Below are positions 5,086 through 29,234 of a DNA stretch of 64,000 bases, piece by piece. Source of the DNA: Moorena sp. SIOASIH. GTDB lineage: Bacteria; Cyanobacteriota; Cyanobacteriia; Cyanobacteriales; Coleofasciculaceae. How positions within the stretch are numbered: position 1 is the first letter of the stretch; every line of letters begins with the position of its first letter. The translations under genes were made by a program, and so were the position numbers. Below the pieces are notes generated by a model that saw nothing but the letters and a program-made list of their open reading frames with translations, searched no databases and was not told the DNA's origin. The DNA is taken from the NCBI RefSeq assembly GCF_010671925.1, contig NZ_JAAHIH010000001.1, positions 613,053 to 677,052 on the forward strand. The letters run 5' to 3'.

Positions 5086-7679
5086 GTGTCTGGAAAATCA
5101 AATAGGCTGAAGTAGCACGGGCGACCGAATATTGGCGCACCTGGGAGCGAGAGGAGTAAGACCCTCTCCCCCCCTAGGATTCAGGAGGGTTCCCACTCGA
5201 AGGTGCAAAAGACGATGGACATCTCGGAAAGAAAAATCTAGGATTATCCCGAAGTCTTTTGTATCAGAGCTAGAGAGAAAGTAGGTTATAACCGAACCAC
5301 CGAATAGGAAATAACCGAACAGGGAAAGAACGACAAGGTTGAAGGACATGAATCGTTGTTTAAAGGCACCGTCATCAGTGATAACCCCGCTAAACTCGGT
5401 GATGGGGTTATAGGCTCCAGGATTACATTGCGTGTTAGATGTAATCGAATCCCATGAAGGACCCGGTGTAGAGACGGCAACCTTTAGTTCGCAACTCACA
5501 GGCGCGTAAACGGGTAAGCCGAGATTGAGTCCATATTGTCTGGTCGATAAATATGGTAGCCAAACCGCAAGGAAAGGTATAACTCTCAGTCCGGTAAAAG
5601 TCTGAACCAAGCAAAGGCCGACACCTGAAAAGGAACGGGAATACATAACCGGTCGGATAGAGGGAAGTCCCTCGCTCGAAAGAGCGCTGAATTTCAGAGC
5701 TGATTCCGAGCCAAGAGGAAACGTACTTAATTAACTTAAAGTGTACATGGAAAAGATAGAACCTATATCGCAAGATACGGGTATCGTAACTGAACACACC
5801 ACTGAATGGCACTCCATAAATTGGAAGAAAGCCTACAGACAGGTGAGGAAATTAAGACAACGTATTTTCAAAGCGACACGTGAAGGAAACTGGAAAAAGG
5901 TCAATAAACTCCAAAGATTGATGCTTAGGAGTTACAGCAATGTCCAGATATCCGTCAAAACAGCCACCCAACAAAATAAAGGAAAGAGAACGGCAGGGGT
6001 TGATCAAGAAAAATGCCTGAATCCTCAAGAAAGAGGACAGATGGTAGACAGATTAATCAACCTCAAATCATGGGCAGCTAAACCCACCAAACGCATCTAC
6101 ATACCCAAGGCCAACGGCAAACAAAGACCCTTAGGGATACCAAGTATCACCGACAGATGTCTACAAGCCATAGTCAAAAACACACTAGAACCTGCCTGGG
6201 AAGCCCAGTTTGAAGGAACCTCATACGGGTTCAGACCAGGCAGAAGTGCCCATGATGCCCGACAACGCATCTTCTCAAATATTAAAGGGGAAAAGAATAG
6301 GAAATGGTGGATAGTGGAAGCGGACATAAAAGGATGCTTCGACAATATAGCCCACCAACCACTTCTGGAATCCATCGGAAACTTTCCAGCAAGAAAGCAA
6401 ATTAAAGACTGGTTAAAGGCAGGGTACGTAGATAAAAATACGTTCCACCCGACAGAATCAGGCACCCCACAGGGGGGAATAATAAGCCCACTTCTGGCCA
6501 ACATTGCTTTACACGGACTGGAAACAGAGTTAGGAATAACCTATAAAAGGGTTAAAAGAAACAACAGGGCAAGTTACTGGGAAAATAAATCCAATAGAAC
6601 AATAGCTCGCTTTGCGGATGACTTTGTAATCATAACAGAGAGCAAAGAAGATGCTGTGAACGCTAAGGAAATCACGAAGAAGTGGTTATCCAAAAGAGGG
6701 TTAGAACTATCGGAAGAAAAAAACCAAGATAACTCACCTAACAGAAGGATTCGATTTCCTAGGATGGAACTTCAGGAAATATAAAACAACCGGAAAAAAG
6801 TCAGGGTACATTACACTAATTAAACCCTCCAAGAAAAGCCTGAAGAACATCAAGAAGGAGATAAAAATAGCCATGGCTCAACTAAAGGGTGCATCAGAAG
6901 ATGTGGTGATAGCCAAGTTACAACCTCTCATAAGAGGATGGACCAACTATCACAACGGGACAGTGGCTAAAGAAACCTTCAACAACCTAAATGAATACGT
7001 AAGATGGAAATTAGTAAGATGGTGCCTAAGAAGATACCCAAAAAATAAAAGTTGGGAATGGATTAAAGCCAAACACTTCGGCAAATTCTGCCCTGGAAGG
7101 GAAGATAACCATGTGTTCGGAAGGAAAGACAATTATCTGGACAAAGCACAATGGACAAACATCACCAGGCATGTGCTAGTAACCCACAACTACTCTAAGG
7201 ACGACCCTGAACTCCAAGAATATTGGAAGAAAAGGCAAGAAAAAAATGGGAAAAAAGCAGCAGAAGGAGCACTATCCAAAGGTAGGAATAAGATAGCCTT
7301 AAGGCAAAAATACACCTGCCCATACTGCGGACAACCACTTGGAGAATATAATAATGTTCATCTACACCACATTATCCCTAGGGAAAATGGGGGAAAAGAT
7401 GAAGCAGGGAACCTAGTATATGTCCACGAAGATTGTCACAGGACCATCCACGCCTTGGGAGCCAGCAATCCTGAGATACAGGAAAAACTGTATCGAGCGA
7501 TAAAAACCCGTCCAAGGAACCGGAAGAAAAGCCAAAAGGTACAAACCCGGTTATCCAAAGACTAAAAGCTGGATGAAAAGATAACGTGTATAAAGGAATT
7601 GGTTGCGCCGTGTGCTTGGTAACTTGCTCGCACGGTGCTTAGGGGGCGAAGAGGGAGCAATCCCTCCGACCTACCCAAT
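5086..7679 (+). mobile_element. Group II intron, about 2.6 kb, with its intron-encoded protein in domain IV
   Basis: An RT-X-HNH ORF is flanked by non-coding RNA-like sequence. A domain V-like hairpin GCGCCGTGTGC-TTGGTAACTTGC-TCGCACGGTGC lies at 7604-7638. A domain VI-like segment ends in ..CCAAT at 7679. The proposed 5' end GTGTC at 5086 and the 3' end are inferred from reconstructing the interrupted dhaL reading frame: joining 5085|7680 restores ..GHQDPVLETIA-stop on the minus strand. Boundaries are within a few nt. Confidence 0.6.
5741..7565 (+). pseudogene. Group II intron-encoded reverse transcriptase/maturase/HNH endonuclease, split by a +1 frameshift in an A7 run (6717-6723)
   Basis: ORF 5741-6784 carries RT domains 0-7 (RPLGIPSITDRCLQA, FRPGRSAHDA, FADDFVII). 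ORF 6873-7565 carries the X/maturase motif RGWTNYH and an HNH domain (CPYCGQ..HHIIPRENGG..HEDCH). Deleting one A from GAAGAAAAAAACC restores the canonical ..LSEEKTKITHLTEGFDFLGWNFRKY.. junction. This is either a genuine pseudogene or a homopolymer sequencing error. Confidence 0.8.
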
Positions 7680-8253
7680 CAGGGTCTTGATGTCCAGCAC
7701 TGCGCTCCCCTAAATAACTGGCTCGTCCTTTCTTGGCCACCAACGGAATAGTATTTTTCATCCCTTCTTCTGCGGCGTTGACGGCCTGTTGCAAGGCTGC
7801 TAGCATACTGTCTCCTTTATCTACAGCTTGTGCGAAGGCATTGGCTGCGGGTGATAGAGCATCTAACATGGTCTTATCTCCCAAGTTGGCTTTGCCTCGC
7901 TGGACGACTCCCTCCACTGCTGCTTGGAATAGTTTGACCATATCCTCTTTTGTCAGTTCTTGCTTTCCTGCTACTGCTGCACTTGAGCGCAAGAACAGGG
8001 TGCCATAAAGTGGTCCACTGGCACCTCCGACACTGGAAATTAGAGTCATGCTGACGGTTTTGAGAATACTGCCAATGTCTTTATCTGCCACTTTAGGAAG
8101 CTCAGTGATCACCTTTTGAAAGCCACGATTCATATTGATACCGTGGTCAGCATCACCAATAGCAGCATCAAGTTCGGTTAGATAGTCCTTGTTTTGTTCT
8201 AGTACAGTAGCGACTGCTTGTAACCACTGTAGAATTTGATGTTTAGTTACCAT
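7639..8253 (-). CDS. dhaL: Dihydroxyacetone kinase ADP-binding subunit DhaL; its C-terminus is replaced by intron-derived sequence
   Basis: ELDAAIGDADHGINMNRG, GGASGPLYGT and KKGRASYLGERSAGHQDPD motifs. The last 12 codons (..DWVGRRDCSLFAP) are read from the group II intron 3' end rather than from dhaL. Confidence 0.8.
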   Translation of the reverse strand: MVTKHQILQWLQAVATVLEQNKDYLTELDAAIGDADHGINMNRGFQKVITELPKVADKDIGSILKTVSMTLISSVGGASGPLYGTLFLRSSAAVAGKQELTKEDMVKLFQAAVEGVVQRGKANLGDKTMLDALSPAANAFAQAVDKGDSMLAALQQAVNAAEEGMKNTIPLVAKKGRASYLGERSAGHQDPDWVGRRDCSLFAP

Positions 8254-8299
8254 AGTGGCAGACTGGGTCAGGGGATGAGAGCCTCAGGGTAGCAATGAG

Positions 8300-8497
8300 G
8301 TAAGCATTCAGCTATCAGCTATCAGCTAATGCGCTACTTGAGATGCTACTTGAGGTGCTAATGGCCTATGGCCACGCTAATTTATGTGCTTATAGGCTAT
8401 TAGCAAGCTATGAGACTTTTGAATAAAACAAGTAAGCATTCGAATAATGCTGAGTTATGGAAAGCTGACGGCTGACCGCTGACGGCTGAATGCTTAC
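8300..8497. repeat. MITE-like element with GTAAGCATTCAGC / GCTGAATGCTTAC inverted termini
   Basis: Terminal inverted repeats at 8300-8312 and 8485-8497. Internal CAGCTAT heptamers, GCGCTACTTGAGATGCTACTTGAGGTGC and CTGACGG heptamers. A GCAATTA x4 array lies just outside at 8500-8525. Confidence 0.5.
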
Positions 8498-8566
8498 GCA
8501 ATTAGCAATTAGCAATTAGCAATTAGCTAAGCTTTACGATACTGATGCTCCCAGATATCATATTAA

Positions 8567-9640
8567 TCATAATCCCCAACGCAGGGCTGGTGTCTTGACT
8601 GGTGCATCCCAGAATTTAATTAGCTCATCGTTCATCTTGAGTAGGGTAATCGAGCAGCCTTGCATTTCTAGAGACGTAATATAAGGACCAATCAGACTAC
8701 GCACGATTTCCAGTCCCTTTTGTTCACAGATTTGGGCTAATTTCCGATACACAATGTATAGTTCCGACAGGGGAGTACCACCCATGCTATTCACGAATGC
8801 TAGAATGCGATCGCTTTTCTGAAAAGGCGGGTCAGTTATTTCCAACTCTGTCCATTCTGCTTTATCTTCATCCCACTCTCGCAATGTGCGGCTATAGGCA
8901 GAATCTTCAATAATCGATAGCGCTAGCATTTCAGTTATCTCATCCGCTGATTTTAGGGACATTCGTTTTCTTCCCGGTTCTCCGTGAATGCCAATCCCAA
9001 ATTCTATTTCCGCTTCCCCCAAGTCAAACATGGGACTACCTTTAGCAGGAGGGGTGCAGGATGTCAAGGCCATACCCATGCTGCGTCCATTACCATTAAC
9101 CTGGCGACAGAGATTAGCCAGTTGTTTGAGGTCATAACCGGCAGCAGCGGCAGCGCCACAGATTTTCTCGGCTAATAATGTCGTCCCTACCCCCCGCCTG
9201 CCTTGAGTATAGAGGCTATCTTTAACCGCTACATCATCATCAATTAGGATATTGAGGACTCGGATGCCTTCTGAGATAGCTAATTCCGCAGCTAACTCAA
9301 AATTCATGACGTCACCGCTATAGTTTTTGACAATATTAAGAACCCCCGCGCCACTGTTGACTATTTTGGCAGCTTCTAGCATTTGGTCGGGAGTGGGAGA
9401 GGTAAACACTTCACCGGGACAGGCGGCATCTAACATTCCCGCACCCACAAAGCCCCCGTGCAAGGGTTCATGACCACTACCACCACCGGAAATAATCGCT
9501 ACTTTGTTTGATATGGGAGCATCAGCGCGGTAGATCAAGGGGGGGTCAAGATTAATTTTGAGCAGGTCAGGATGGGCTACAGCCATGCCTTCTAGGCTTT
9601 CTCTGACAACATTATCGGGATGATTGATTAATTTTTTCAT
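8567..9640 (-). CDS. dhaK: Dihydroxyacetone kinase DHA-binding subunit DhaK
   Basis: 357 aa. Motifs [30 protein letters not shown] and PGRKRMSL match the Dak1/DhaK family. Upstream of dhaL on the same strand. Confidence 0.85.
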
Positions 9641-10455
9641 GATTGATATCAGTAGTCATGGGTAATGGGTAATGGGTAATAGGTAATTGGTGATCCCATT
9701 ACCCATTACCTAGGCTTTACAATACCGATGCTACCGAACTTGATATAGTGGTTTTCAAGGCGCGCTAATTACAATAACAACAAGTAGTCATTAGTCATTA
9801 GCTAGGATTCGGGATTATACTTAACCTACAAGCAAACCGCTATTTTAGCAAAAAACGGAAGTAGCAATTATCAAGCTCAAACGGCACTCTGTCAAAATTA
9901 TTATCCCTGTTAAAGCCCAAAAAATAAAAATTATAACCCTTTAACATTCTGATTACGGTACGCAATAAAGATTGTTATTAGGAAACCAGAGTAAGGCTAC
10001 ACTCAATTGATGAAGTTTAATAAATATTTGTAAATAACGGCGGCCACTTTCAAAAAGTATAGGTTGAGGAAATAGTGCTGCTAATCTTTCACTTATAAAG
10101 TGTTTATGAAATTGGTGCAGCCCTAGCAACAGCTGAAGGGTTAGACATTGAATGACGTTTAATCGACTTTGAAATTGAGCCTGAATCAAATTGAGATAAC
10201 ATTTTGCAATAAAACGGGATTGTTGACAATTGAGACCGTTATTTTTCTCCCACAACTTGCTCTGATTACCAAGCCATAAGTCTTTTAGCCAGGTTGTGAC
10301 CCCGTCAACAACTGTGGACATCTGGACAACCCTGATTACCTTACCAAGTTGACCAAGACCTTTAACTAATTGTGCCATGCTTAAACCTAAATGCTAGTAT
10401 AATCCCGATACCAATTTTTTTTTGAAATTAGGGTAACACATAAGGAAATTCAACC

Positions 10456-11964
10456 ATGACCATAACCAAACCAATGTCATCTCAACGATATGCAGAATTT
10501 GACCAGGTCTTCCAGTTATTTGATGCCAATGGTGATGGATTCATCAGTCGTCAGGAGATCATCGATGCTCTAGAGATTCTGGGACAAGGCATTTCCCTTC
10601 AAGACCGAAGTAATCTGTTAAATCTGCTCAACACAGATGATGTTGTAACACGGGATGCCTTTATGGAGTGGATGGTAAACCGCCAAGATCTCGATATTAG
10701 GGCTGATCTGCGACAGGTGTTTGAACTGATTGATGTTGATGGTAGTGGCAAGTTATCGATTGAGGAGTTCACCCAGATTATCCGGTGCTTCAACACCACC
10801 GTAACTGATTCAGAAATTGCTGCCTTAGTGAGAAAAGCTGATTTAAATGGAGATGGTGAAATTGATTTTGAAGAGTTTATTGTCACTCAGACTTACGAAT
10901 CGGCTCTGAAAATTTCGATCGCAGGGTTACGCAGTTTCAAAAAGATTTTACTTCAGTACCAGAAAGTCGCAAAGTTTTCCTCCATTGCCCTGATTGAAGT
11001 TGATTCTGAATTAGGAGCGGGAACGCGCGGTCAATCCATGGGAACTGCTGCTTTGAGAGAAGCTGCCATCCAAAAACAGGCAGCACGGATGCATGCCGAG
11101 AATGGTGTTTTGAGTCTGGATAGTTTACAAGTACAAACCGAAAATTGGGCAGATGCTCTGGGACACAAACATCAATACGCCAAGTATATTCACAAGCTAT
11201 ATCAGGTGCTGAGCCGAACTACAGATGTAGTCGCCCAAACCCTACAGGAGGGGCTGTTTCCAGTGGTACTCGGTGGGGATCATTCAACGGCAGCAGGGAC
11301 AATCGCCGGAATCAAAAAAGCCTTTCCGAATCATCGCCTGGGAGTGGTTTGGATTGATGCCCATGCCGATATTCACTCCCCCTATACGACTCCATCGGGA
11401 AATATGCATGGGATGCCTCTGGCGATGGCGACTGCTACTGATAATCTGGCCAAGCAAATCAATGATCTTGACTCAGACACCGTAAAACTGTGGAACTTGT
11501 GCCAACGATTGGGGCTGGCAGATGGCGCGAATTTTAGCATTGAGGATTTGGTTTATATTGCGGTACGAGATACGGAAGAGGCAGAAGACCATTTGATTGA
11601 AACACACCAGATCCTAAACATGACCAGTGAGCACGTTCGTACCTTGGGTGCGGATGTCGTTGCCCAACGGTGTTTAGAGAAGCTAGAAGGGGTGGATCTG
11701 ATTTACGTTACCTTCGACGTGGACAGTATGGACTCGACAATTTGTATGGGAACGGGAACCCCGGCTCCAAATGGGATTTTTGTCAAGGAAGCCTGTCTGC
11801 TCAACGAAACTTTGGTTAAAGATCCACGGGTGTGTTGTTGGGAAATCTGTGAAATTAATCCTCTGCTTGATACCCTCAACACCATGGTGGAAAACTCTTT
11901 GGGCATTTTTGAAACCGTAGTGGATGCCATTGCCAATCGCCTAGAAGTCACAGGGAAAGCATAA
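10456..11964 (+). CDS. EF-hand calcium-binding domain fused to an arginase-family ureohydrolase
   Basis: N-terminal EF loops DANGDGFISRQE, DVDGSGKLSIEE and DLNGDGEIDFEE. The C-terminal part aligns with arginase: VVLGGDHSTAAG, VVWIDAHADIHSPYTTPSGNMHGMPLA (compare [26 protein letters not shown]), VYIAVRDTEE, IYVTFDVDSMD..GTGTP, EICEINPLLD. Confidence 0.8.
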   Translation: MTITKPMSSQRYAEFDQVFQLFDANGDGFISRQEIIDALEILGQGISLQDRSNLLNLLNTDDVVTRDAFMEWMVNRQDLDIRADLRQVFELIDVDGSGKLSIEEFTQIIRCFNTTVTDSEIAALVRKADLNGDGEIDFEEFIVTQTYESALKISIAGLRSFKKILLQYQKVAKFSSIALIEVDSELGAGTRGQSMGTAALREAAIQKQAARMHAENGVLSLDSLQVQTENWADALGHKHQYAKYIHKLYQVLSRTTDVVAQTLQEGLFPVVLGGDHSTAAGTIAGIKKAFPNHRLGVVWIDAHADIHSPYTTPSGNMHGMPLAMATATDNLAKQINDLDSDTVKLWNLCQRLGLADGANFSIEDLVYIAVRDTEEAEDHLIETHQILNMTSEHVRTLGADVVAQRCLEKLEGVDLIYVTFDVDSMDSTICMGTGTPAPNGIFVKEACLLNETLVKDPRVCCWEICEINPLLDTLNTMVENSLGIFETVVDAIANRLEVTGKA

Positions 11965-11979
11965 GACAAATGTTCAACT

Positions 11980-13635
11980 ATGATTAAACCTTCTATTCCC
12001 CCGGCTACCCCTGAACCCTCACCGCTCCATGAACTAATTGCCAAGCTAGTACTGTTCAAACCCCATCGGACTAAGCTATTTCCCTGGTTGCTACCTGGTG
12101 CAGGCACATTGCCATCTCTCAATCAACGGTTAGGCCATCAACCCCTGTTGGATTTTTTGAATTACAACTTGCGTGGCATTGGCCAGGTAATCTTTGTGAA
12201 CAACCCCCTGAGTGGGTTATTGATTCTGGTAGCACTGTTTATTCAGTCACCTTGGGTAGGGGTGATGAGTGTAGTGGGTGTGGTGGCTTCAACCGTAACT
12301 GCCATCTTCCTTGATCTTAATCGCGATAGTCTTCGCAACGGTATTTTTGGCTATAACGGGATTTTAGTCGGAGCAGCACTTGCTACTTTTGGGGCATCCG
12401 GGAATGGTAACTGGAATCCCCTCTGGATCATCGCTGCTATCATCTTTTCTGCTCTTACCACTCTGCTGATCAAGACCGTCGGAGTCTGGTTTGCCAGCAA
12501 GCTGAAATTTCCCCCCCTAACCTTGCCCTTTATTGCGGCAACCCTGTTATTTCTGGTGATTGCGGTCTGGATGCCTCAACCAGTTTATACCTTGGGGAGC
12601 ACGCCGACTCCCCCACCTGTCTTGGAACCGATCAATTGGTGGCAACTTGCCACCTCCGTGCCGATTGGGTTTGGACAGGTGTTTTTAATGGATAAGTTTG
12701 TGGCTGGGGTGCTTGTCCTGGCCGCAGTTGCCTGGTGTACACCGATTGGGGCAGCTGTCGGATTATTGGGGGGAGTATTCGGTACCCTGGCGGCGCTGAT
12801 CACAGGTGTCGGTGCTGACACCATCTCGGCTGGATTGTGCAGTTACAACGCCATCTTGACAGCAATGGCTATTTCTGGAGTATTTTTTGCCCCCAACCTG
12901 CGCAGCTTACTTGCGGGCATTTTTTTGGCTTTTTTTTCAACTCTCCTGGGGGGCATTTTAAGCCACATCTTCAGCCTACTTAACTTGCCCATCCTGACCT
13001 TACCCTTCTGTTTGGTCACAATCCTAGGTTTCCGGTATTTGCAGCAGACACTGCCATCATTAGTCCCAGTTCCCCTACATGCGATCGCTAGCCCAGAAGA
13101 ACATTACCAGCGTTACCTGGTTGCCAAAGATATCCTTACCACATTTCGCCGTCAGATGCAAGGGGCAATGGCCGGTACACCCCACCTATATTTATTTGAG
13201 TCTGCCTCCGCCTCAACCAAAGGAAATATCGAATATCTCTTTAATGCCATTGATACCGATTTCAGTAACACCCTTTCGGTTAACGAGCTAGCAGAACACC
13301 TGCGGCAAGTCAAACGAGGTATGTCTCAACAGGAATTGGATTATTTGTTTCGTTGTATGGATATTGATGGCAGTGGTGAAATTGATCTGGCTGAGTTTGG
13401 TGAATTGTTATTGCGTCAGCAACGATTGATGTCTAACTATAACGACTTCATTACTTACTTTATACCAATTGATGCTAATCAGGATGATGCTATCAGTATC
13501 GATGAAATGAATTTAGCTTTTGCCAGTGTAGGTGAATCACCCCTTAGTGTACATGAAGTGAACTTTTTATATGGTCGCATGAATGGAGAAGCTATCACCT
13601 GGAATCGCTTTATTGAAGTTTTATTGGTGACTTGA
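11980..13635 (+). CDS. Urea transporter (UT family) fused to a C-terminal multi-EF-hand domain
   Basis: The UT signature LRGIGQVIFVNNPLSGLLIL is followed by about 8 predicted TM helices. The C-terminal ~190 aa carries EF loops DTDFSNTLSVNE, DIDGSGEIDLAE and DANQDDAISIDE. Confidence 0.75.
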   Translation: MIKPSIPPATPEPSPLHELIAKLVLFKPHRTKLFPWLLPGAGTLPSLNQRLGHQPLLDFLNYNLRGIGQVIFVNNPLSGLLILVALFIQSPWVGVMSVVGVVASTVTAIFLDLNRDSLRNGIFGYNGILVGAALATFGASGNGNWNPLWIIAAIIFSALTTLLIKTVGVWFASKLKFPPLTLPFIAATLLFLVIAVWMPQPVYTLGSTPTPPPVLEPINWWQLATSVPIGFGQVFLMDKFVAGVLVLAAVAWCTPIGAAVGLLGGVFGTLAALITGVGADTISAGLCSYNAILTAMAISGVFFAPNLRSLLAGIFLAFFSTLLGGILSHIFSLLNLPILTLPFCLVTILGFRYLQQTLPSLVPVPLHAIASPEEHYQRYLVAKDILTTFRRQMQGAMAGTPHLYLFESASASTKGNIEYLFNAIDTDFSNTLSVNELAEHLRQVKRGMSQQELDYLFRCMDIDGSGEIDLAEFGELLLRQQRLMSNYNDFITYFIPIDANQDDAISIDEMNLAFASVGESPLSVHEVNFLYGRMNGEAITWNRFIEVLLVT

Positions 13636-13654
13636 GCGAGAGGGGTTGGTGAAT

Positions 13655-13860
<206 letters not shown>

Positions 13861-14226
13861 CTAATCACTATCGACCAAAACAGTAACCGCTGCAACAGCA
13901 ATCAGCATGTCATCATTTTTATCATTAAGTTCTGGAATTGCTCTGCCTTGAACTACCATTCCACCGGACTCAAGGGATAGAGTTTTCTGACCAAAAGGCA
14001 GTACAGCGAGTACTTCATCTTCCCGGACTTGCTCTGGGTAAGGCACGGCGACTTGAACTTCAACTATCATTTGATTGGGATGCTCTAAACCAGCTACTTC
14101 CCAAACACCAGGCAAGGCATTGTGAGCAATAGCGTTGCGTACAGCTCTTGCTGCTGCTACGGTTGGGTCTTGACCGTGTTGGTCTACTCCCATTCCCATT
14201 TCAATAATTAAGCGTTTACGAACCAT
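13861..14226 (-). CDS. Conserved hypothetical protein, Lin0512-like family (MGMGVDQHGQDPT motif)
   Basis: The 142-aa ORF probably starts at the internal MVRKRLIIEMGMGVDQHGQD, giving 121 aa. Family assignment is from memory of TIGR02058-like proteins and is not verified. Confidence 0.45.
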   Translation of the reverse strand: MVRKRLIIEMGMGVDQHGQDPTVAAARAVRNAIAHNALPGVWEVAGLEHPNQMIVEVQVAVPYPEQVREDEVLAVLPFGQKTLSLESGGMVVQGRAIPELNDKNDDMLIAVAAVTVLVDSD

Positions 14227-15263: not shown

Positions 15264-18110
15264 TCAAACCGACCTGTCGAGTTGGTTGATAATATACTCT
15301 TTAACCCCAAAAGCCGAATCTAGCTGCAACGCCTCACCAGCAAGCATCTCGGCCTGGTTGATACTCAACTGTGTAATAACTGAAATCACAGTAGCGATCG
15401 CAGGTGGATTCACACTCAACTCATCCACCCCCAATCCTAATAAAATCGGTATCCCTACTGGATTCGATGCCAACTGACCACAGACACTAACTGGAATCCC
15501 TGCTTGATGAGCAACAGTTACCGTTTGCTGAATCATCCGTAGCACAGCTGGTTCAAGGGCATCAGCCAGCTTCGCCACCTTGGGATTAGTACGGTCAGCG
15601 GCCATCACATATTGACTCAAATCATTGGTACCAATGCTGAAAAAGTCCACTTCAGCGGCTAACTGATCAGCCATGGTTACTGCTGCCGGGACTTCTACCA
15701 TAATCCCCACTGGCATCTGTTCATTAAAACGATGCCCTTCTTGGCGCAACTCGGCTTTAGCCTCTGCTAGGATTTCCTTAGCAGCCCGTACCTCTTGTAC
15801 TGAAGAAACCATAGGAAACATCACTTTAATGTTGTGTCCATAACTCCCTCGTAGAATCGCCCGCAGTTGGATTTTGAGCATCTCTGGACAATCCAAACTC
15901 TGACGAATTCCCCGCCATCCTAGGAAAGGGTTAGGCTCTGGGGTGTGCGGAGCAGAGGAAGCATCAGAAGACGCTAGATTCAGGAAGGGAATGGGCTTGT
16001 CACCGCCAATATCCAAAGTACGAATCGTTAGGGGATGGGTACCCATAATTTGCGCAATGGCTTGATAGGTTGCCAACTGCTCTTCCTCGCTCGGAATAGT
16101 TAAGCGTTCCAGATAAAGAAACTCAGTCCTAAGTAAACCGACCCCTTGAGCACCACAATCGAGAGCCAATTTAGCATCAGCCTCTCCCAAAACATTTGCC
16201 ATCAAGGGAATTTTGTGTCCATCATGAGTAATTACCTCCCTAGGTAATTCATCCTTACTGTTGCTCTGTAGCTGTAATTCTTGCTTTTGTTCCTCAGAAG
16301 GCTCTACCCAAATTTCACCGGTTGTCCCATCCAGTGCCAACTCCGTACCAGCTGGCAACGACAACAGATCCTGACCAACACCAACCACCATCGGTATACC
16401 GAGCATATTGGCGATTAGGGCACTATGGGCTGTAGCACTGCCCCTAGCGCAACAGATACCTAGGACTTGGATCGGATTTAGTTGTGCGACCTCAGAGGGA
16501 GTTAAATCAGCAGCAACCAGAATACCAGGCTCAGTCACATCTATTTGACTTACTAAGTTTAGTTGGTTTTGCCCCCCTGCCCCCCAATTTTTCGGTGCGA
16601 CCCGTGGCGAATTTAATTCGCCAACGGAAAGCGCACCGGGAGGGGTAATCATGTCAAAGTCCCCCGCCCCCCTAACCCCCCAATTCTGGGGGGAATTAGC
16701 GGATGCTTTGCTTTTTGACATTGGGGGATTTAGGGGGCTCTTGCGTAAGTCCTGATCTAGACAGCTTTCTTTCCTATTCGTGAGTAATCGCAACACTCGC
16801 CAGCCGACATCGATCACATCATTTCCGCGAGCTTGCATGTAGGAGTCTTCCAGAGTTTGGTAATTTGCTACGGTTTCATCGATCACAGTTTTCCAAGCCG
16901 CCCCTGCCCATAGATGCTGGTCAACTATAATCTGATAAGCTCTATTAACTAGGGCTGGATCCTCTAAATAGAGCAAGTGAGCCTGAAAAATATCTGCCTG
17001 ATCGTTAGTAACAGTATTGATCAGGTGTTCAAGTTGCTGTTGTGCTGTTTTAATAGCAAGTTGTAGGGTTTCCCACTCCCCTTGAGGATTATCTGTTTGC
17101 TCTTCAATAATTTCTGGACGTTTGGGTTGGTAGACAATAACCGCTCCGATAGCAATACCAGCAGCAGCGGGAATTCCAACTAACCTATCAAGTGTGACAG
17201 ATGACGAGTGAAGGGATTGGTTACTGGGAGGGTTAGAGTCTTGGTTGATGTCTTCTTTTGGTTTATCTAGTTTTTCCCCAAAATTGTTATGGACTAGCTG
17301 CTGCAACGCGATCAAGGCTAATTCCGCATCTTCTCCTACTGCATAGATGACTATTTTATCTCCCTGTTGGATACCTAAAAGCATCACATTATTAATGCTT
17401 TTTCCATTAACTATATTGCTAGTTTTGGTTAGGTTTTGTAGGGTTATTTCACAGTTAAACCGATTAGCTGTAGTAACAAATTGGGCAGCAGGACGAGCAT
17501 GAATTCCCTGTTGATTCTGGACAGTAAGATGGATTTCTTTGGTTGTAGTTCCGTAGGGTGCGTTAGGGACGGGCTCACCCTGATTTTCCCCTTCGTAGCC
17601 AGGGTTGGAACAGCCAGTCCCACCCACGGGCAAGATGCCCGTTCCACCCACGGGCAAGATGCCCGTTCCACCCACGGGCAAGATGCCCGTTCCACCCACC
17701 GGGTCTGATAACTGAGAGGCTTTAGCGGTTAAGGCTGATCTAGCTTCAGCAATCACTTGGTCGATATCACCACCAGCCGCAGCTTGGACAACCGCTGCGA
17801 TCGCACCTTCCACTAATGGCGCTTCGCACAATCTTACCTTGGGTTTCTGCTCTTCATCCAGAAACTCCAGTGCCATTTCCGCACTGAGCACGGCACTGCC
17901 TAAATCCATTAATACCACTACCCCAGCATCGGAGTAAACCGACTCAATGGCAGCTTGGACTTGCAGCACATCGGTACCAAAGGGATTTTCCGGGTCATCG
18001 ATACCAGCTGCGATCGCAATCGGTACGGATGTCTGAACCATCTGTTGGGCTAATTCCTTGACCCCAGCCGCTAGCTTAGCACTGTGGGAGATAATCACAA
18101 TTCCAATCAT
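15264..18110 (-). CDS. dhaM: Multidomain phosphotransferase DhaM/PtsP-like: EIIA(Man)-like domain, then a hairpin-repeat linker, then HPr, then Enzyme I
   Basis: MIGIVIISHSAKLAAG is the EIIA-Man/DhaM N-domain. GIHARPAAQFV is the HPr His site. GSATAHSALIANMLGIPMVVG, GGLLRTEFLY, IRTLDIGGDK and FSIGTNDLSQY are Enzyme I/PEP-utilising motifs. The ORF track starts at 18197 inside a (GGCAAGA)n array; the conserved start MIGIV is at 18110. Confidence 0.85.
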   Translation of the reverse strand: MIGIVIISHSAKLAAGVKELAQQMVQTSVPIAIAAGIDDPENPFGTDVLQVQAAIESVYSDAGVVVLMDLGSAVLSAEMALEFLDEEQKPKVRLCEAPLVEGAIAAVVQAAAGGDIDQVIAEARSALTAKASQLSDPVGGTGILPVGGTGILPVGGTGILPVGGTGCSNPGYEGENQGEPVPNAPYGTTTKEIHLTVQNQQGIHARPAAQFVTTANRFNCEITLQNLTKTSNIVNGKSINNVMLLGIQQGDKIVIYAVGEDAELALIALQQLVHNNFGEKLDKPKEDINQDSNPPSNQSLHSSSVTLDRLVGIPAAAGIAIGAVIVYQPKRPEIIEEQTDNPQGEWETLQLAIKTAQQQLEHLINTVTNDQADIFQAHLLYLEDPALVNRAYQIIVDQHLWAGAAWKTVIDETVANYQTLEDSYMQARGNDVIDVGWRVLRLLTNRKESCLDQDLRKSPLNPPMSKSKASANSPQNWGVRGAGDFDMITPPGALSVGELNSPRVAPKNWGAGGQNQLNLVSQIDVTEPGILVAADLTPSEVAQLNPIQVLGICCARGSATAHSALIANMLGIPMVVGVGQDLLSLPAGTELALDGTTGEIWVEPSEEQKQELQLQSNSKDELPREVITHDGHKIPLMANVLGEADAKLALDCGAQGVGLLRTEFLYLERLTIPSEEEQLATYQAIAQIMGTHPLTIRTLDIGGDKPIPFLNLASSDASSAPHTPEPNPFLGWRGIRQSLDCPEMLKIQLRAILRGSYGHNIKVMFPMVSSVQEVRAAKEILAEAKAELRQEGHRFNEQMPVGIMVEVPAAVTMADQLAAEVDFFSIGTNDLSQYVMAADRTNPKVAKLADALEPAVLRMIQQTVTVAHQAGIPVSVCGQLASNPVGIPILLGLGVDELSVNPPAIATVISVITQLSINQAEMLAGEALQLDSAFGVKEYIINQLDRSV
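17618..17701. repeat. 24-nt tandem repeat (CCCACGGGCAAGATGCCCGTTCCA, about 3.5 copies) inside dhaM, encoding (GGTGILPV)n
   Basis: Direct reading. The unit contains the hairpin AACGGGCAAGATGCCCGTT, which also occurs at 35770-35830, 19390-19420 and within the 61-bp satellite at 22895-23290. Confidence 0.85.
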
Positions 18111-18149
18111 AAGGTATATAAACACCTTTGTATCTGGGTTGTGAACATA

Positions 18150-18205
18150 CTCCCAAAGGCAAGAGGCAAGAGGCAAGAGGCAAGAGGCAAGAGGCAAGAG
18201 GCAAA
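18150..18205. repeat. Heptamer repeat (GGCAAGA)6 in the dhaM 5' leader
   Basis: Direct reading; duplicated at 19555-19585. Confidence 0.85.
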
Positions 18206-24909: not shown

Positions 24910-25506
24910 ATGGCATTAGTACCTATCCGTAAGGCGGTCGAACTTACAGGACTATCTCCAAACACACTACGGAAGTATGCAGACAATGGCACCATTCGAT
25001 GCGAGAGAACCCCAGGAGGGACTAGACTCTTTGACTCAACAGATCTTCGCAGTTTTGGAAAAGCTCGAAGGGCTAGTAGACCCAACAATGTCACCATCTG
25101 CTACTGCCGAGTCAGTAGCAGTAAACAACGAGACGATCTCGCTCGCCAAGTCGCCTATCTGCATTCCCTCTTCCCCGAAGCAGAAATCATCTTTGACATC
25201 GGTTCCGGCCTCAACTACAAAAGAAAGGGGCTTAGAACCATACTGGAGCGAGTTGTCTGCGGAGATAAGCTCACGATTGTTGTTGCCTGTAAAGACCGAC
25301 TTACCCGATTCGGGTTTGAACTCATTGAGTACTTGGTCGGTCTCAACGGTGGAAAAATCCTGGTTCTCGACCAGTCTAAAAACTGCCCAGAATCAGAGCT
25401 TACCGCAGATCTTCTCTCCATCATTCACGTCTTCTCCTGTCGGGTTCACGGACTCAGGAAATACGGTCAGAAAATCAAAGAAGATTCGTCTGTTCCTAAA
25501 CCCTAG
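24910..25506 (+). CDS. tnpA: IS607-type TnpA: MerR-like HTH + serine recombinase (resolvase) catalytic domain
   Basis: HTH LVPIRKAVELTGLSPNTLRKYADNG. Resolvase motifs ICYCRVSSSKQRDDLARQ (catalytic Ser) and VVACKDRLTRFG. Confidence 0.8.
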   Translation: MALVPIRKAVELTGLSPNTLRKYADNGTIRCERTPGGTRLFDSTDLRSFGKARRASRPNNVTICYCRVSSSKQRDDLARQVAYLHSLFPEAEIIFDIGSGLNYKRKGLRTILERVVCGDKLTIVVACKDRLTRFGFELIEYLVGLNGGKILVLDQSKNCPESELTADLLSIIHVFSCRVHGLRKYGQKIKEDSSVPKP

Positions 25507-26581
25507 TCAGCGATCGCTAGTCCGTAAGTGGTTCGGAGTGTCCCGTTATGTTTTCAATAAAACAGTTAAAATTCTCCAGAGTGGCGAAGTAAAAGCCAAC
25601 TGGAAAGCCATTAAAACTGGTATTCTAAATGACCTACCCGACTGGTGCAAGGAAGTGCCTTATCAGATCAAATCGATAGGGATTAAGGATGCTTGCACTG
25701 CTGTCAGGGAGGCTAAGAAGAAGTACAAGAAAACATTAGATATAAACCGGGTAAGGTTTAGATCTCGAAAGAATCCTATTCAGTCTTGCTATATCCCAAA
25801 GTCAGCCATTTCAGATGTAGGGATGTATCACACTAAATTAGGCGAGCTAAAGTATTCAGAGCCTCTTCCAATAGAAGTGTGCGACAGCCGACTAACCAGC
25901 AATAATGGGGACTTCTATTTAGTAGTTCCCCATAAAGTAACAAAAACGAATGCCGAAAACCAAGGTAGAGTAGTTGCTTTAGACCCTGGAGTCAGAACTT
26001 TCATTACTTTTTTCAGTGAGACATCTGTCGGGAAGATTGGGCATGGGGACTTTTCAAGAATCCAGCGACTCTGCCAACACCTAGACAACCTACTGTCTAA
26101 AATCAGTAAAGCTAAAGGTGGGCAAAAGCGTCGGATGAAGAAAGCCGCCAGGCGAATGGTTATTAAGATTCAAAATCTAGTCAACGAATTGCACCATAAG
26201 ACGGCTAGATTCTTGGTTGATAACTTCGATGTAATTCTTATCCCTACTTTTGAGACATCTCAGATGTCAAGGAAAGGGAACAGGAAAATTAGATCTAAAA
26301 CCGTTCGTAATATGCTCACCTTCGCTCATTACCGTTTCAAAGAATTTCTAAAACATAAAGCCCAGGAAATGGGGAAACTGGTAATAGATGTCTGTGAGGC
26401 TTACACCAGTAAGACTGTTAGTTGGACAGGTGAATTGCTCAACATTGGTGGAAGCAAAATAATCACATCGAAAGTTGATGGTCGATCTATGGATCGAGAC
26501 ATTAACGGCGCTCGGGGGATATTCCTCAGAGCCTTGGGAGATACCCCCTGGTTGCGAGAGCAACTTGCATTAGTGAGCTAA
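25472..26581 (+). CDS. tnpB: TnpB (OrfB) RuvC-like RNA-guided nuclease-family protein of the IS607 element
   Basis: KIRLFLNPSQRSLVRKWFGVSRYVFN is a typical TnpB N-terminus. ALDPGVRTF is RuvC-I. The C-terminal DINGARGI follows a zinc-finger-like region. The start codon is uncertain: there is no in-frame ATG near the conserved N-terminus, so it is probably a GTG/TTG start overlapping the tnpA end. Confidence 0.75.
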   Translation, partial: KSKKIRLFLNPSQRSLVRKWFGVSRYVFNKTVKILQSGEVKANWKAIKTGILNDLPDWCKEVPYQIKSIGIKDACTAVREAKKKYKKTLDINRVRFRSRKNPIQSCYIPKSAISDVGMYHTKLGELKYSEPLPIEVCDSRLTSNNGDFYLVVPHKVTKTNAENQGRVVALDPGVRTFITFFSETSVGKIGHGDFSRIQRLCQHLDNLLSKISKAKGGQKRRMKKAARRMVIKIQNLVNELHHKTARFLVDNFDVILIPTFETSQMSRKGNRKIRSKTVRNMLTFAHYRFKEFLKHKAQEMGKLVIDVCEAYTSKTVSWTGELLNIGGSKIITSKVDGRSMDRDINGARGIFLRALGDTPWLREQLALVS

Positions 26582-27171: not shown

Positions 27172-28236
27172 ATGAATGATCTAGACCAAGCCAAGGTAGA
27201 TGACTTTTCTGGGAAAATGCTTGATATCCTCAATGGGTCTATGCTAAGTCTTATGATCGGTATTGGGTATCAGACTGGGTTGTTTGAAGTTATGGCCAAT
27301 CTGCCCCCTTCTACTAGCGAACAAATCGCTGTGGTAGCCCAGCTAAAAGAAAGGTATGTCCGTGAATGGCTGGCAGCCATGGTCACTGGGCAAATCATCG
27401 ACTATGACCCAACAACCAATAGCTATAGTTTATCCGCTGAACATGCCTCTGTGCTGACACAGGTGGCAGGACCAAATAACATGGCACGGTTGACACTGGT
27501 TATTCCATTTCTGGCATCAGTCCAAAAAGCTCTTGTTAATAGTTTTCACAACGGTGGTGGCGTTTCCTATTCTGCTTACCCAGACTTCATGAACTTGTGG
27601 GCTGAAATTAATGCCGATAGATTTGATGCCACCATAACCCAAAAAATCCTACCTCTTATGCCTGATGTGGTTGAAAAGATGCGTCAAGGTGTTGATGTTC
27701 TTGATATTGGTTGTGGGGATGGTCATATCCTTAACCTCATGGCTAAAGCCTTTCCCAACAGTAGGTTTACAGGCTATGATTTTTTAGAAAATGGCATTGA
27801 TGCTGCCAGAGCGAAAGCACAATCCCTTGGCCTAACCAATATTAACTTAGAAGTCAAAGATATTACAACCTTAAATGAACCAAACAAGTACGAACTAATT
27901 ACAGCTTTTGATGCCATCCACGATATGGCACAACCAGCTAAAGTATTAAAATCAATTGCCGATTCACTTAAACCTGACGGAACTTTCTTGATGGTTGACT
28001 TGGCAGCATCAAGTAATCTGCACGAAAACCTGGATCACCCCTTAGGGCCGTGGCTATACACAACATCTTGTATGCATTGCATGACCGTTTCATTGGCACT
28101 AAATGGGGCAGGGCTTGGTGCAATGTGGGGGGAACAAAAAGCACTAAAAATGTTAAATGATGCAGGGTTTATACATGTAGATATTAAACAAATTCCAGAA
28201 GACATTTTCAACAATTATTATATTGCCAAAAGGTAA
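27172..28236 (+). CDS. Class I SAM-dependent methyltransferase with an N-terminal substrate-binding/dimerisation domain
   Basis: SAM motif VLDIGCGDGHILNLMAKAF. Motifs DFLENGIDAARAKA, FDAIHDMAQP and LKPDGTFLMVD. The ~150-aa N-terminal domain is typical of small-molecule O-/C-methyltransferases. Confidence 0.75.
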   Translation: MNDLDQAKVDDFSGKMLDILNGSMLSLMIGIGYQTGLFEVMANLPPSTSEQIAVVAQLKERYVREWLAAMVTGQIIDYDPTTNSYSLSAEHASVLTQVAGPNNMARLTLVIPFLASVQKALVNSFHNGGGVSYSAYPDFMNLWAEINADRFDATITQKILPLMPDVVEKMRQGVDVLDIGCGDGHILNLMAKAFPNSRFTGYDFLENGIDAARAKAQSLGLTNINLEVKDITTLNEPNKYELITAFDAIHDMAQPAKVLKSIADSLKPDGTFLMVDLAASSNLHENLDHPLGPWLYTTSCMHCMTVSLALNGAGLGAMWGEQKALKMLNDAGFIHVDIKQIPEDIFNNYYIAKR

Positions 28237-28517
28237 GCCGTCAGCGGTCAACTATCAGCTATCAGCTATCAGCTATCAGCTATCAGCGGTCAGCTATCAG
28301 CGGTTAGCTATCAGCTATCAGCTAAAGGCTTATGGTCAAGGCTGACGGCTGAATGCTTACATTCGCTGAATGCTTATGCCAAAACCTAAATACTCAAGTT
28401 ATTTAAGGGTATAATTACCTGGAGATAAATAAACGGAACTGTGTTAACTTTTGTAACGCTGCCACCTCTGTTCCCTATTCCCTGCTCCCTGCTCCCTGCT
28501 CCCTAAAACCCAAGAAT

Positions 28518-29234
28518 TTGTACCTCATTCAAATAATAATTGCTATAACCATGATGGAATTAGAACTAATAACTAAAGTATATCCGATTACAAAGAATTG
28601 CCAATTATTATATGAACGAGGAGAACATGCACTTTTAGGTATTAGTCCATTTAATAGCTATTTTTCAGAAAAAAATATCGCTATTTTATCAAACTGGGCG
28701 ATGAAGAATTTTAAGAGCTTTAATTTTTTTATACCAGACGAGCCCTATGTCTATACACTAATGGCTTTAGGATACGATAAAGTTAAAGCCATAAAAAAAT
28801 CTAAAAGGCAAGCTAATTATTTAAAAAATAAATGTCTAAGAGCCTTAACAGGATTAGACCTATCAACAAATGAAGCCGAAGCACTAATCTTAGATTTCCG
28901 GTATTTGAACAAAAACAAAAATTATCTCTCAGCACTAAAATTTTATGAAGATAAATATGCTAATGATAGTGAATTTAGAATAAATTGTATCGAAACGTCT
29001 AAGCAGGTAGTGGAAACACGAACATACCTTAGTTATGATCGGTTAGAAATTGCTGTTAAGTATCTATTAGCAGAATTACCTTTGTTTTTTAACAGTGTCA
29101 GTATTTTGGGTAAAAAAGAAGGAGTTTTTTGTTACCGGTATTGCCCCTTGTTAATTCAAACTGTTTTTGAGAAAAAAAATGGGATGGTATTGAATAATCA
29201 AGGTTACCTTATTATAGATATTGAATCTAATTAA
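28518..29234 (+). CDS. Putative tRNA-dependent cyclodipeptide synthase (CDPS, AlbC-like)
   Basis: ERGEHALLGISPFNSYFSEKNIAILSNWA matches the AlbC catalytic-serine region as recalled (..RGEHALIGIS.GNSYFS..). KYLLAELPLF contains the conserved Y-x3-E pair. VFCYRY contains the conserved Tyr. About 238 aa. About 30% GC against roughly 45% in flanking genes. The true start may be the internal MMELEL. Confidence 0.6.
   Translation: MYLIQIIIAITMMELELITKVYPITKNCQLLYERGEHALLGISPFNSYFSEKNIAILSNWAMKNFKSFNFFIPDEPYVYTLMALGYDKVKAIKKSKRQANYLKNKCLRALTGLDLSTNEAEALILDFRYLNKNKNYLSALKFYEDKYANDSEFRINCIETSKQVVETRTYLSYDRLEIAVKYLLAELPLFFNSVSILGKKEGVFCYRYCPLLIQTVFEKKNGMVLNNQGYLIIDIESN

Follow-up and report, generated by a model that had tools for sequence, protein, structure and literature searches.

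A conserved cyanobacterial gene pair for an arginase-fold ureohydrolase and a UT-family urea channel, both carrying a calmodulin-like domain: a candidate Ca2+-controlled urea module

Can a bacterium place both the production of urea and its passage across the membrane under the direct control of cytoplasmic Ca2+? The question is raised by two adjacent genes of the cyanobacterium Moorena sp. SIOASIH, which lie within the 64,000-nucleotide (nt) stretch of contig NZ_JAAHIH010000001.1 analyzed here (positions 613,053 to 677,052, forward strand; hereafter the window). Gene 1 encodes a fusion of a calmodulin-like EF-hand domain with an arginase-fold ureohydrolase (EF-ureohydrolase), gene 2 a fusion of a UT-family urea channel with a second EF-hand domain (UT-EF); their coordinates and features are compiled in Table 1. 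An earlier sequence-only reading had located the two open reading frames on the + strand, 15 nt apart, and both are found exactly there; the motifs quoted in it, GGDHS, DAHAD, SGNMHGMP, and DVDSMD for gene 1 and LRGIGQVIFVNNPLSG for gene 2, all occur in the translations. A Moorena sp. SIOASIH protein listed as 'arginase' matches the gene 1 product with 100% identity. Judged by its sequence, gene 1 encodes a soluble, binuclear-metal ureohydrolase of the arginase fold with an N-terminal calmodulin-like domain, and the pair is conserved as a unit across cyanobacteria. The reading built on this evidence, which in our judgment could as readily prove right as wrong, is that of a two-gene operon that would place urea production and membrane urea permeability under direct cytoplasmic Ca2+ control.

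Both fusion architectures are real, as had been claimed; they are recovered by Pfam domain searches, and each recurs in more than 100 clusters at 90% identity. EF-hand families of Pfam, including pair matches to EF-hand_7, cover amino acids (aa) 14–143 of gene 1 and aa 417–479 of gene 2. Three EF-hands per protein had been proposed, and three canonical loops are indeed present in each, but each domain holds four EF-hands, one of them degenerate, namely EF2 of gene 1 (around aa 59) and the fourth loop of gene 2 (around aa 534). Calmodulin can be aligned with the whole of the gene 1 domain (aa 7–146; 78 bits against calmodulins in the PDB, 31% identity). Conservation of the loops was read from aligned full-length homologues, 103 for gene 1 and 111 for gene 2. 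Asp occupies position 1 in 94–100% and Glu position 12 in 93–100%; Asp, Asn, or Ser fills positions 3 and 5, and Ile, Leu, or Val position 8. Gly stands at position 6 in 75–100% in five loops; the remaining one, the third of gene 2, carries Asp or Asn there. The canonical Ca2+-ligand positions anticipated for these loops are kept on proper alignment, and purifying selection is strong, in all three loops of either protein, at ligand positions 1, 3, 5, and 12 and at hydrophobic position 8, a conservation that on these alignments is not a matter of chance.

In every cyanobacterial locus fetched that holds an intact EF-ureohydrolase gene and enough flanking sequence, the UT-EF gene follows on the same strand, from picocyanobacteria (44% identity) to filamentous forms. 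The adjacent, co-oriented pair is present in about 30 loci, among them the genome loci L001, L004/5, and L009–13 and 15 metagenome loci, with gaps of −4 to 168 nt between the two genes, and the distribution check bears out that the adjacency is conserved in distant cyanobacteria. The fetched flanks of these loci reach 10 kb, and clustering of the neighboring open reading frames over 19 loci found no conserved gene besides the pair. The two genes look like one operon because they share a strand, are separated by a 15-nt gap, have no terminator that could be found between them in the window, and keep their adjacency across taxa. Ahead of gene 1, a TATAAT −10-like hexamer can be read, and an AGGA 9 nt before the ATG; the consensus promoter scan did not call the hexamer, a match to the −35 element being missing. 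Two other control elements were considered and rejected. A riboswitch or known RNA upstream of or inside the pair was dismissed since the sole Rfam match at 9400–14200, obtained with permissive thresholds, is at chance level, and an NtcA-type nitrogen-control site (GTAN8TAC) upstream of gene 1 was dismissed since none occurs in 9641–10455 and, across the window, such sites are as frequent as expected by chance.

The pair has also been lost. In a sister Moorena (L006, 96% identity), gene 1 carries a frameshift and, within the linker helix described below, ~430 nt of inserted sequence; gene 2 is missing, and the genes on either side are intact. In a Moorena-like locus of 79% identity (L124, 8700–11100), only fragments are left of the two genes, and one metal ligand has been exchanged (GGDHS to GGDRS). 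The two genes have decayed together in these two relatives of Moorena. The insertion in L006 (10001–12100) is non-coding and has hairpin ends, and the deletion of gene 2 extends up to a tract of GCTGATA heptamer repeats. Polyangiaceae (L002, L003, L007), on the other hand, encode the EF-ureohydrolase without a channel gene, in L002 after a Ser/Thr kinase gene. The myxobacterial proteins share 59% identity with the Moorena protein overall and 66–67% in the catalytic domain; they are closer to it than the picocyanobacterial proteins (44%), which suggests horizontal transfer between filamentous cyanobacteria and myxobacteria.

As for the enzyme itself, the Pfam family Arginase (PF00491) matches aa 177–475 of gene 1 with an E-value of 3e-51. 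With arginase residues numbered as in the rat enzyme, the metal ligands H276, D301, H303, D305, D421, and D423 (His101, Asp124, His126, Asp128, Asp232, and Asp234) align with those of the solved arginases 1CEV and 2EIV and are invariant in the family, as are H318 (His141) and E466 (Glu277, in the EINP motif). Loop A, IHSPYTTPSGNM, has full arginase length and keeps S314 (Ser137) and N316 (Asn139), and loop B, D372-T-E374-E-A-E377, keeps D372 (Asp181) and E377 (Glu186). In NCBIfam, gene 1 scores 216.5 bits with the arginase model TIGR01229 (rocF), against 53–67 bits with the agmatinase hidden Markov models and 70 bits with formimidoylglutamase. The best PDB sequence matches of the ureohydrolase domain are all arginases, and so are the top 50 Foldseek matches in the PDB (TM-score 0.59–0.76, target-normalised) of the gene 1 model, which has a predicted local distance difference test score (pLDDT) of 72.6. 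On these three counts the domain groups with arginase and not with agmatinase, as the sequence-only reading had it; its further claim of a 'genuine arginase' is right as to sequence and fold but overstated in view of the score, the two replaced substrate ligands, and the polyamine-cluster relatives to be described next. From the sequence, L-arginine is the most likely substrate of gene 1, agmatine-type substrates are a serious rival, and urea is the product in either case.

A near-invariant Cys-Cys pair stands just ahead of the catalytic Glu of EINP, in the motif RVCCWEICEINP (aa 458–469, nt ~11827–11862). It is present in the Bacteroidota relatives as well (VCCWE, VCCFE); the aligned solved arginases have no Cys there. 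The pair could be a redox-sensitive site.

The alternative that survives best, rather unlikely as we consider it, starts from the substrate: gene 1 would be an arginase-fold ureohydrolase for agmatine or a guanidinylated polyamine, e.g., N1,N9-bis(guanidino)homospermidine, the operon would serve Ca2+-controlled polyamine synthesis, and the channel would handle urea as a by-product. The nearest unfused relatives of the catalytic domain come from Bacteroidota, where they bear the annotation 'arginase' (45–52% identity); they carry the motif DAHADxH[ST]P that marks the whole clade, and one of them scores 218.6 bits against TIGR01229. The genome survey with gene 1 was dominated by these arginase-like genes, which were used as outgroup, and held few cyanobacterial genomes; the metagenome scan was made with gene 2 instead. 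Across the Bacteroidota loci (L014–L085, e.g., L060, 8309–13975), a short, ancestral-type gene resembling arginine decarboxylase (ADC) adjoins the ureohydrolase gene in 61 of 72, argS is nearby in 56 of 72, and a gene resembling SpeY/deoxyhypusine synthase (DHS) in 18 of 72, a frequent tight order being ADC, ureohydrolase, SpeY, argS. In another Bacteroidota species, a cluster of this type, which includes a dedicated ureohydrolase, serves to make homospermidine by way of agmatine (PMC13625781).

Several observations weigh against the reading of an arginine-degrading, Ca2+-controlled operon, and four of them concern the substrate: the location of the unfused sister enzymes in these ADC/SpeY polyamine clusters, the replacement of the alpha-carboxylate ligand Asn130 by His307, invariant throughout the clade, the replacement of the alpha-amino ligand Asp183 by the invariant Glu374, and a score 11 bits below the TIGR01229 equivalog cut-off of 227.6. 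The exchange N130D makes human arginase accept agmatine, with dual specificity, whereas the N130Y triple mutant keeps arginase activity only, and it was the shortening of loop A, rather than the residue at position 130, that was required for specificity toward agmatine alone (PMC9224512). In gene 1 and its homologues loop A has its full length, and the invariance of Ser137 and Asn139 in loop A and of Asp181 and Glu186 in loop B suggests that an alpha-amino-acid substrate is still recognised. The weak agmatinase scores and the lack of any agmatinase among the top 50 fold matches likewise speak against a polyamine role, and so does the neighborhood: no ADC or SpeY gene was found near the cyanobacterial pairs. 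Furthermore, a dedicated urea channel better suits a high-flux catabolic enzyme, and membership of the characterised W. algicola diagmatinase (WP_138435142) in this clade could not be established, the protein not being among the 120 best matches of a Flavobacteriales query. Bacteroidota 'arginase' proteins by the thousands carry His for Asn130 and stand in the clusters with ADC, argS, and often SpeY, so that the annotation may be wrong for the whole Bacteroidota clade.

The partner of the enzyme can be described with fewer reservations. The Pfam family UT (PF03253) matches aa 62–349 of gene 2 with an E-value of 2.5e-76 and 257 bits (cut-off 25), covering profile positions 3–286 of 292; the NCBIfam yut equivalog scores 166 bits, under its cut-off of 274.6. 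Gene 2 matches the solved UT-A and UT-B channels with 150–164 bits over aa 53–384 and the bacterial dvUT with 117 bits, and it is a feature of the cyanobacterial UT core (11980–13119) that it resembles the vertebrate channels more closely than the solved bacterial one. T181 and T340 align with the threonine motifs vfTlpf and pcTwpf of UT-A, so that gene 2 is confirmed as a UT channel with both selectivity-filter threonines; the role of the Sm-site threonine in the selectivity filter has been documented by mutagenesis (PMC12171576). The AlphaFold2 monomer model of gene 2 has a pLDDT of 81.5 and a predicted template modelling score of 0.77, its UT core is predicted to be helical with an internal repeat, and NNPxSG motifs are present. 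Within the conserved N-terminal cytoplasmic motif, PSPLHELIAKLVLF, L16 is near-invariant, PLHELI is the consensus in 52 sequences, and a helix is predicted for aa 16–23.

The genomic partners of UT-EF were collected by a metagenome scan with a UT-EF alignment (41 loci), to which the genome loci were added, and three contexts emerged. In the first, the EF-ureohydrolase gene is directly upstream of UT-EF (15 of the 41 metagenome loci and 7 genome loci); in the second, a complete urease operon is directly downstream (L088, L104, L105); in the third, UT-EF stands beside an inosine-uridine nucleoside hydrolase gene, with or without a 5'-nucleotidase gene. The pore is Thr/Thr in all scorable loci linked to EF-ureohydrolase (23/23) or to a urease operon (3/3), and has Gly together with Ser or Ala in the 6 of 6 scorable loci linked to nucleoside hydrolase or 5'-nucleotidase. 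The pore type tracks the partner, and the tie of the Thr/Thr subtype to enzymes that make or consume urea supports, at the level of sequence and gene order, conduction of urea by the gene 2 channel. The pore-variant UT-EF genes (L086, L087, L089, L102, L103, L106, L107, L109, L120, L122, L125), in which the selectivity threonines are replaced by Gly/Ala and Ser/Ala, form a subclade that is never linked to ureohydrolase or urease and often has nucleoside hydrolase genes as partners; the solute that it conducts may not be urea. Beside UT-EF in L089 (6192–7892) and L112 (6681–8375), a 5'-nucleotidase (Metallophos + 5_nucleotid_C) carries three C-terminal EF-hands of its own; in L089 the inosine-uridine nucleoside hydrolase gene adjoins as well, and a fragment of the EF-hand 5'-nucleotidase is found in L127.

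The direction in which urea moves is the point on which a second alternative turns, namely that the pair serves as a urea export or vent, Ca2+ activating the breakdown of arginine for its ornithine while urea leaves the cell as waste, as a nitrogen currency shared in filaments or mats, or as fuel for ureolytic carbonate precipitation, by which excess Ca2+ would be removed. We think this improbable. In about 30 loci a urea producer is encoded just ahead of a passive urea channel, none of the arginase-linked pairs has a urease gene beside it, nor was one seen among the window genes scanned (open reading frames to ~37 kb), and many carriers belong, by name, to benthic or mat-forming genera. The Thr/Thr UT-EF genes directly upstream of complete urease operons, however, point the other way, a channel upstream of a urease operon being an uptake arrangement by analogy with Yut and UreI; moreover, a channel has no intrinsic direction, and the calcification link is pure speculation.

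How a Ca2+ signal might reach the two working domains is suggested by the segments that join them to the sensors, since a conserved basic amphipathic helix lies between sensor and working domain in both proteins. In gene 1 this linker helix, IAGLRSFKKILLQYQKVA, keeps K162, K163, L165, and Y168 in at least 95% of homologues. It is absent from the unfused Bacteroidota enzymes, which begin at strand beta1; for this reason an assignment of the helix to the arginase fold was rejected, the helix can be taken to have come with the fusion, and it is a candidate intramolecular target ('junction') of the EF domain. In gene 2 the linker, PEEHYQRYLVAKDILTTFRRQMQGAM, has P372, E373, H375, and R378 invariant and F389, R390, and A396 at least 90% conserved, and in the model it is predicted with confidence and leads directly from the final membrane helix to the EF domain. 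The termini of UT-B are intracellular, and by homology with this topology the C-terminal EF domain of gene 2 is placed in the cytoplasm. The gene 1 protein has neither a signal peptide nor a transmembrane segment, and therefore both sensors should read cytoplasmic Ca2+.

The EF-hand modules of gene 1, gene 2, and the 5'-nucleotidase score 28–42 bits against each other and 42–90 bits against calmodulin. A common origin of the three was rejected, their mutual likeness being no higher than that to calmodulin; they were therefore acquired independently, and by these scores the 5'-nucleotidase is a third catabolic enzyme with EF-hands of its own. That the EF-hand domains are no Ca2+ switches at all, serving instead as structural or oligomerisation modules or as binders of another metal, e.g., in Mn2+ buffering or delivery for the binuclear center, is very improbable: it can draw on the general ability of EF-hands to bind Mg2+ and Mn2+, on the Mn2+ requirement of arginase, and on the one degenerate EF-hand per domain, but the Ca2+-type ligand positions and hydrophobic position 8 are strongly selected, with Gly at position 6 kept in all but one loop, a channel without need of Mn2+ carries the same kind of module, the independent gain of EF-hands by the unrelated 5'-nucleotidase argues for a shared signal over protein-specific structural roles, and both domains would reside in the cytoplasm, where free Ca2+ is low and regulated.

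In the proposed mechanism, a rise in cytoplasmic Ca2+ would load the EF domains, which would then clamp the neighboring helix, by analogy with calcium-dependent protein kinases (CDPK) and calmodulin-regulated channels, and this clamping would change catalytic activity and pore gating, both being activated together in our proposal. The enzyme would convert L-arginine, e.g., from cyanophycin, to ornithine and urea, and the channel would let urea equilibrate across the inner membrane; urea would flow in where urease keeps its cytoplasmic concentration low, and out where it accumulates. The role that we favor would be Ca2+-triggered nitrogen mobilisation and scavenging via urea. Three points lead to it: UT-EF is found with urease operons, the pore-variant subclade has EF-tagged enzymes of nucleotide catabolism for neighbors, and earlier work connects Ca2+ with nitrogen. 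Ca2+ signaling has been tied to nitrogen metabolism in cyanobacteria, with few Ca2+ effectors known (PMC7065334, PMC4915528, PMC13578307). To the substrate-related counterweights given above must be added that the two decayed copies in Moorena relatives show the module to be dispensable, that the EF-ureohydrolase can work alone, as the channel-less Polyangiaceae homologues indicate, that the gene 1 model has low confidence over aa 184–237, and that neither a urease gene nor an NtcA site nor a riboswitch was found near the pair among the sequences scanned.

A bolder form of the Ca2+-controlled pair may be put forward tentatively, although we would expect it to fall rather than to stand. Ca2+ would then be a true second messenger acting post-translationally on nitrogen catabolism, gene 2 the first ion-gated UT channel, and gene 1 the first calmodulin-fused ureohydrolase; enzyme and channel would assemble into a threefold, Ca2+-dependent enzyme-on-channel complex, a docking that is conceivable because both parent families are homotrimers, and the EF-hand proteins would make up a convergent nitrogen-scavenging set, a 'calcium regulon without transcription'.

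Table 1. Coordinates of the gene pair and its features in the window (nt, counted from the first letter of the window).
Feature	Position (nt)	Strand	Description	Basis
Candidate gene 1 expression signals	10398..10446	+	TATAAT −10-like hexamer, 10398–10403; AGGA, 10443–10446	Inferred, weak
Gene 1	10456..11964	+	EF-hand (calmodulin-like)/arginase-fold ureohydrolase fusion, 502 aa	Open reading frame, Pfam, NCBIfam
Gene 1 calmodulin-like domain	10480..10893	+	Four EF-hands, aa 9–146	Calmodulin alignment, loop conservation
Gene 1 canonical EF loops	10522–10557; 10732–10767; 10840–10875	+	aa 23–34; aa 93–104; aa 129–140	
Gene 1 linker helix	10918..10971	+	Basic amphipathic helix, aa 155–172	Predicted helix, conservation
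Gene 1 ureohydrolase domain	10981..11889	+	Arginase fold, aa 176–478	1CEV/2EIV alignment, invariant columns, Foldseek
Intergenic spacer	11965..11979	+	15 nt, without terminator	
Gene 2	11980..13635	+	UT-family urea channel/EF-hand fusion, 551 aa	Open reading frame, Pfam, PDB matches
Gene 2 N-terminal motif	12013..12054	+	Cytoplasmic motif, aa 12–25	Conserved
Gene 2 channel core	12136..13119	+	UT core, aa 53–380	Human UT-A alignment
Gene 2 pore threonines	12511–12531; 12985–13008	+	T181 in PPLTLPF; T340 in LPILTLPF	
Gene 2 linker helix	13093..13170	+	Long helix, aa 372–397, from last transmembrane helix to EF domain	Predicted helix
Gene 2 EF-hand domain	13210..13629	+	C-terminal, four EF-hands, aa 411–550	Pfam, calmodulin 40 bits, eight predicted helices
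Gene 2 canonical EF loops		+	aa 425–436; aa 461–472; aa 498–509	

The neighbors of the pair in the window are dhaKL on one side and a dhaM-like gene on the other, both oriented opposite to it. The genes dhaL and dhaK occupy 7639–9640 (− strand), and the dhaM-like gene, encoding a fusion of EIIA, HPr, and Enzyme I, is found at 15264–18197 (− strand); besides the + strand pair, genes for a Lin0512-family protein and a TPMT-like methyltransferase separate the two, and the DhaM-like protein holds an insert of tandem GGTGILPV repeats. Mobile or secondary-metabolism elements occur at 487–1761, 5741–7565, 24977–26581, and 27172–29234, and comprise an RRXRR-HNH protein, a group II intron reverse transcriptase/maturase in two open reading frames, a TnpB/Cas12f-like gene, and a cyclodipeptide synthase gene beside one for a helix-turn-helix methyltransferase. 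At a distance of ~20 kb from the pair, two adjacent genes (33793–35634, − strand) encode a protein of 364 aa that matches L-arginine:glycine amidinotransferase (AGAT; 1JDW, 253 bits) and a protein of 232 aa that matches guanidinoacetate N-methyltransferase (GAMT; 3ORH, 200 bits). Both are barely recognised by Pfam and NCBIfam, and by their PDB matches they look like a creatine-type biosynthetic pair in a cyanobacterium. A possible link of this locus to the urea pair had been raised from the sequence; the existence of the AGAT- and GAMT-like genes is borne out, but none of the other pair loci fetched has them, a weak negative given flanks of 10 kb only, and a functional link was rejected, the two genes of the pair being all that is conserved around it within those flanks.

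It remains to set the two proteins against known systems. With the arginases (RocF; Bacillus caldovelox 1CEV, Thermus thermophilus 2EIV, human ARG1 2AEB), gene 1 has in common the fold, the six metal ligands, His141, Glu277, SGNxHGxP, and the length of loops A and B; it differs in the added N-terminal calmodulin-like domain and junction helix (~175 aa), in His for Asn130 and Glu for Asp183, and in the Cys-Cys pair ahead of EINP, and we know of no arginase with a fused Ca2+ sensor. The unfused Bacteroidota ureohydrolases share the His130 signature, the Cys-Cys motif, and the near-cut-off score, but lack EF-hands and junction helix, have no urea channel gene within 10 kb, and stand, unlike gene 1, in a context of polyamine and arginine use. 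Gene 2 shares the UT core, the Sm threonines, and NNPxSG with the UT channels (vertebrate UT-A/UT-B, bacterial dvUT and Yut), some of whose bacterial genes lie in urease loci like the UT-EF gene of L088; it adds the four-EF-hand domain, joined through a 26-residue helix, and the conserved N-terminal motif. We are aware of no UT channel whose gating is controlled by the binding of a ligand or ion.

The closest functional analogue is the RocF/UreI/urease system of Helicobacter pylori, in which UreI is a gated inner-membrane urea channel that controls the urea supply to urease. UreI belongs to a different protein family and is proton-gated rather than Ca2+-gated, the H. pylori genes do not form an arginase–channel operon, and their purpose is acid resistance; as in the proposal made here, arginase makes urea within the cell (PMC1853099). 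The combination of a cis-fused four-EF-hand domain with a basic amphipathic helix is met, by analogy, in CDPK and CCaMK and in calmodulin-regulated channels, and the calmodulin-like domain of a CDPK (1S6I) is among the PDB matches of gene 2. The effector domains are others, the order is reversed in gene 1, where the sensor is N-terminal to the enzyme, and the clamp is carried over to the present proteins by inference. Among cyanobacterial proteins, CSE and CcbP offer a comparison as cytoplasmic Ca2+-binding proteins tied to nitrogen metabolism, yet CSE, a small stand-alone protein of two EF-hands, has no enzymatic function attached to it and CcbP does not belong to the canonical EF-hand proteins, whereas the sensors of gene 1 and gene 2 are fused to a metabolic effector. 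In a 2026 paper on Nostoc, two Ca2+-binding proteins are counted as analysed in cyanobacteria and many putative EF-hand proteins as unstudied (PMC13578307).

Arginase, UT channels, and EF-hands are each well known, and the proteins are already in public databases under generic names; in the literature searched by full text, neither fusion, nor the operon, nor Ca2+ control of a ureohydrolase or UT channel is described. The substrate question matters for annotation, as thousands of Bacteroidota and cyanobacterial 'arginase' proteins have His for Asn130. Calcium signaling in bacteria is widely suspected and very few effectors have been identified; with the sensor fused to the output, purified proteins can be used to test the proposition that Ca2+ acts as a direct switch of a metabolic step. 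If such control were true, it would represent a new regulatory mode for the arginase and the SLC14/UT families, would provide a mechanistic link between the Ca2+ transients on nitrogen step-down and the mobilisation of nitrogen, and would make the channel a natural Ca2+-gated urea valve of possible use in engineering.

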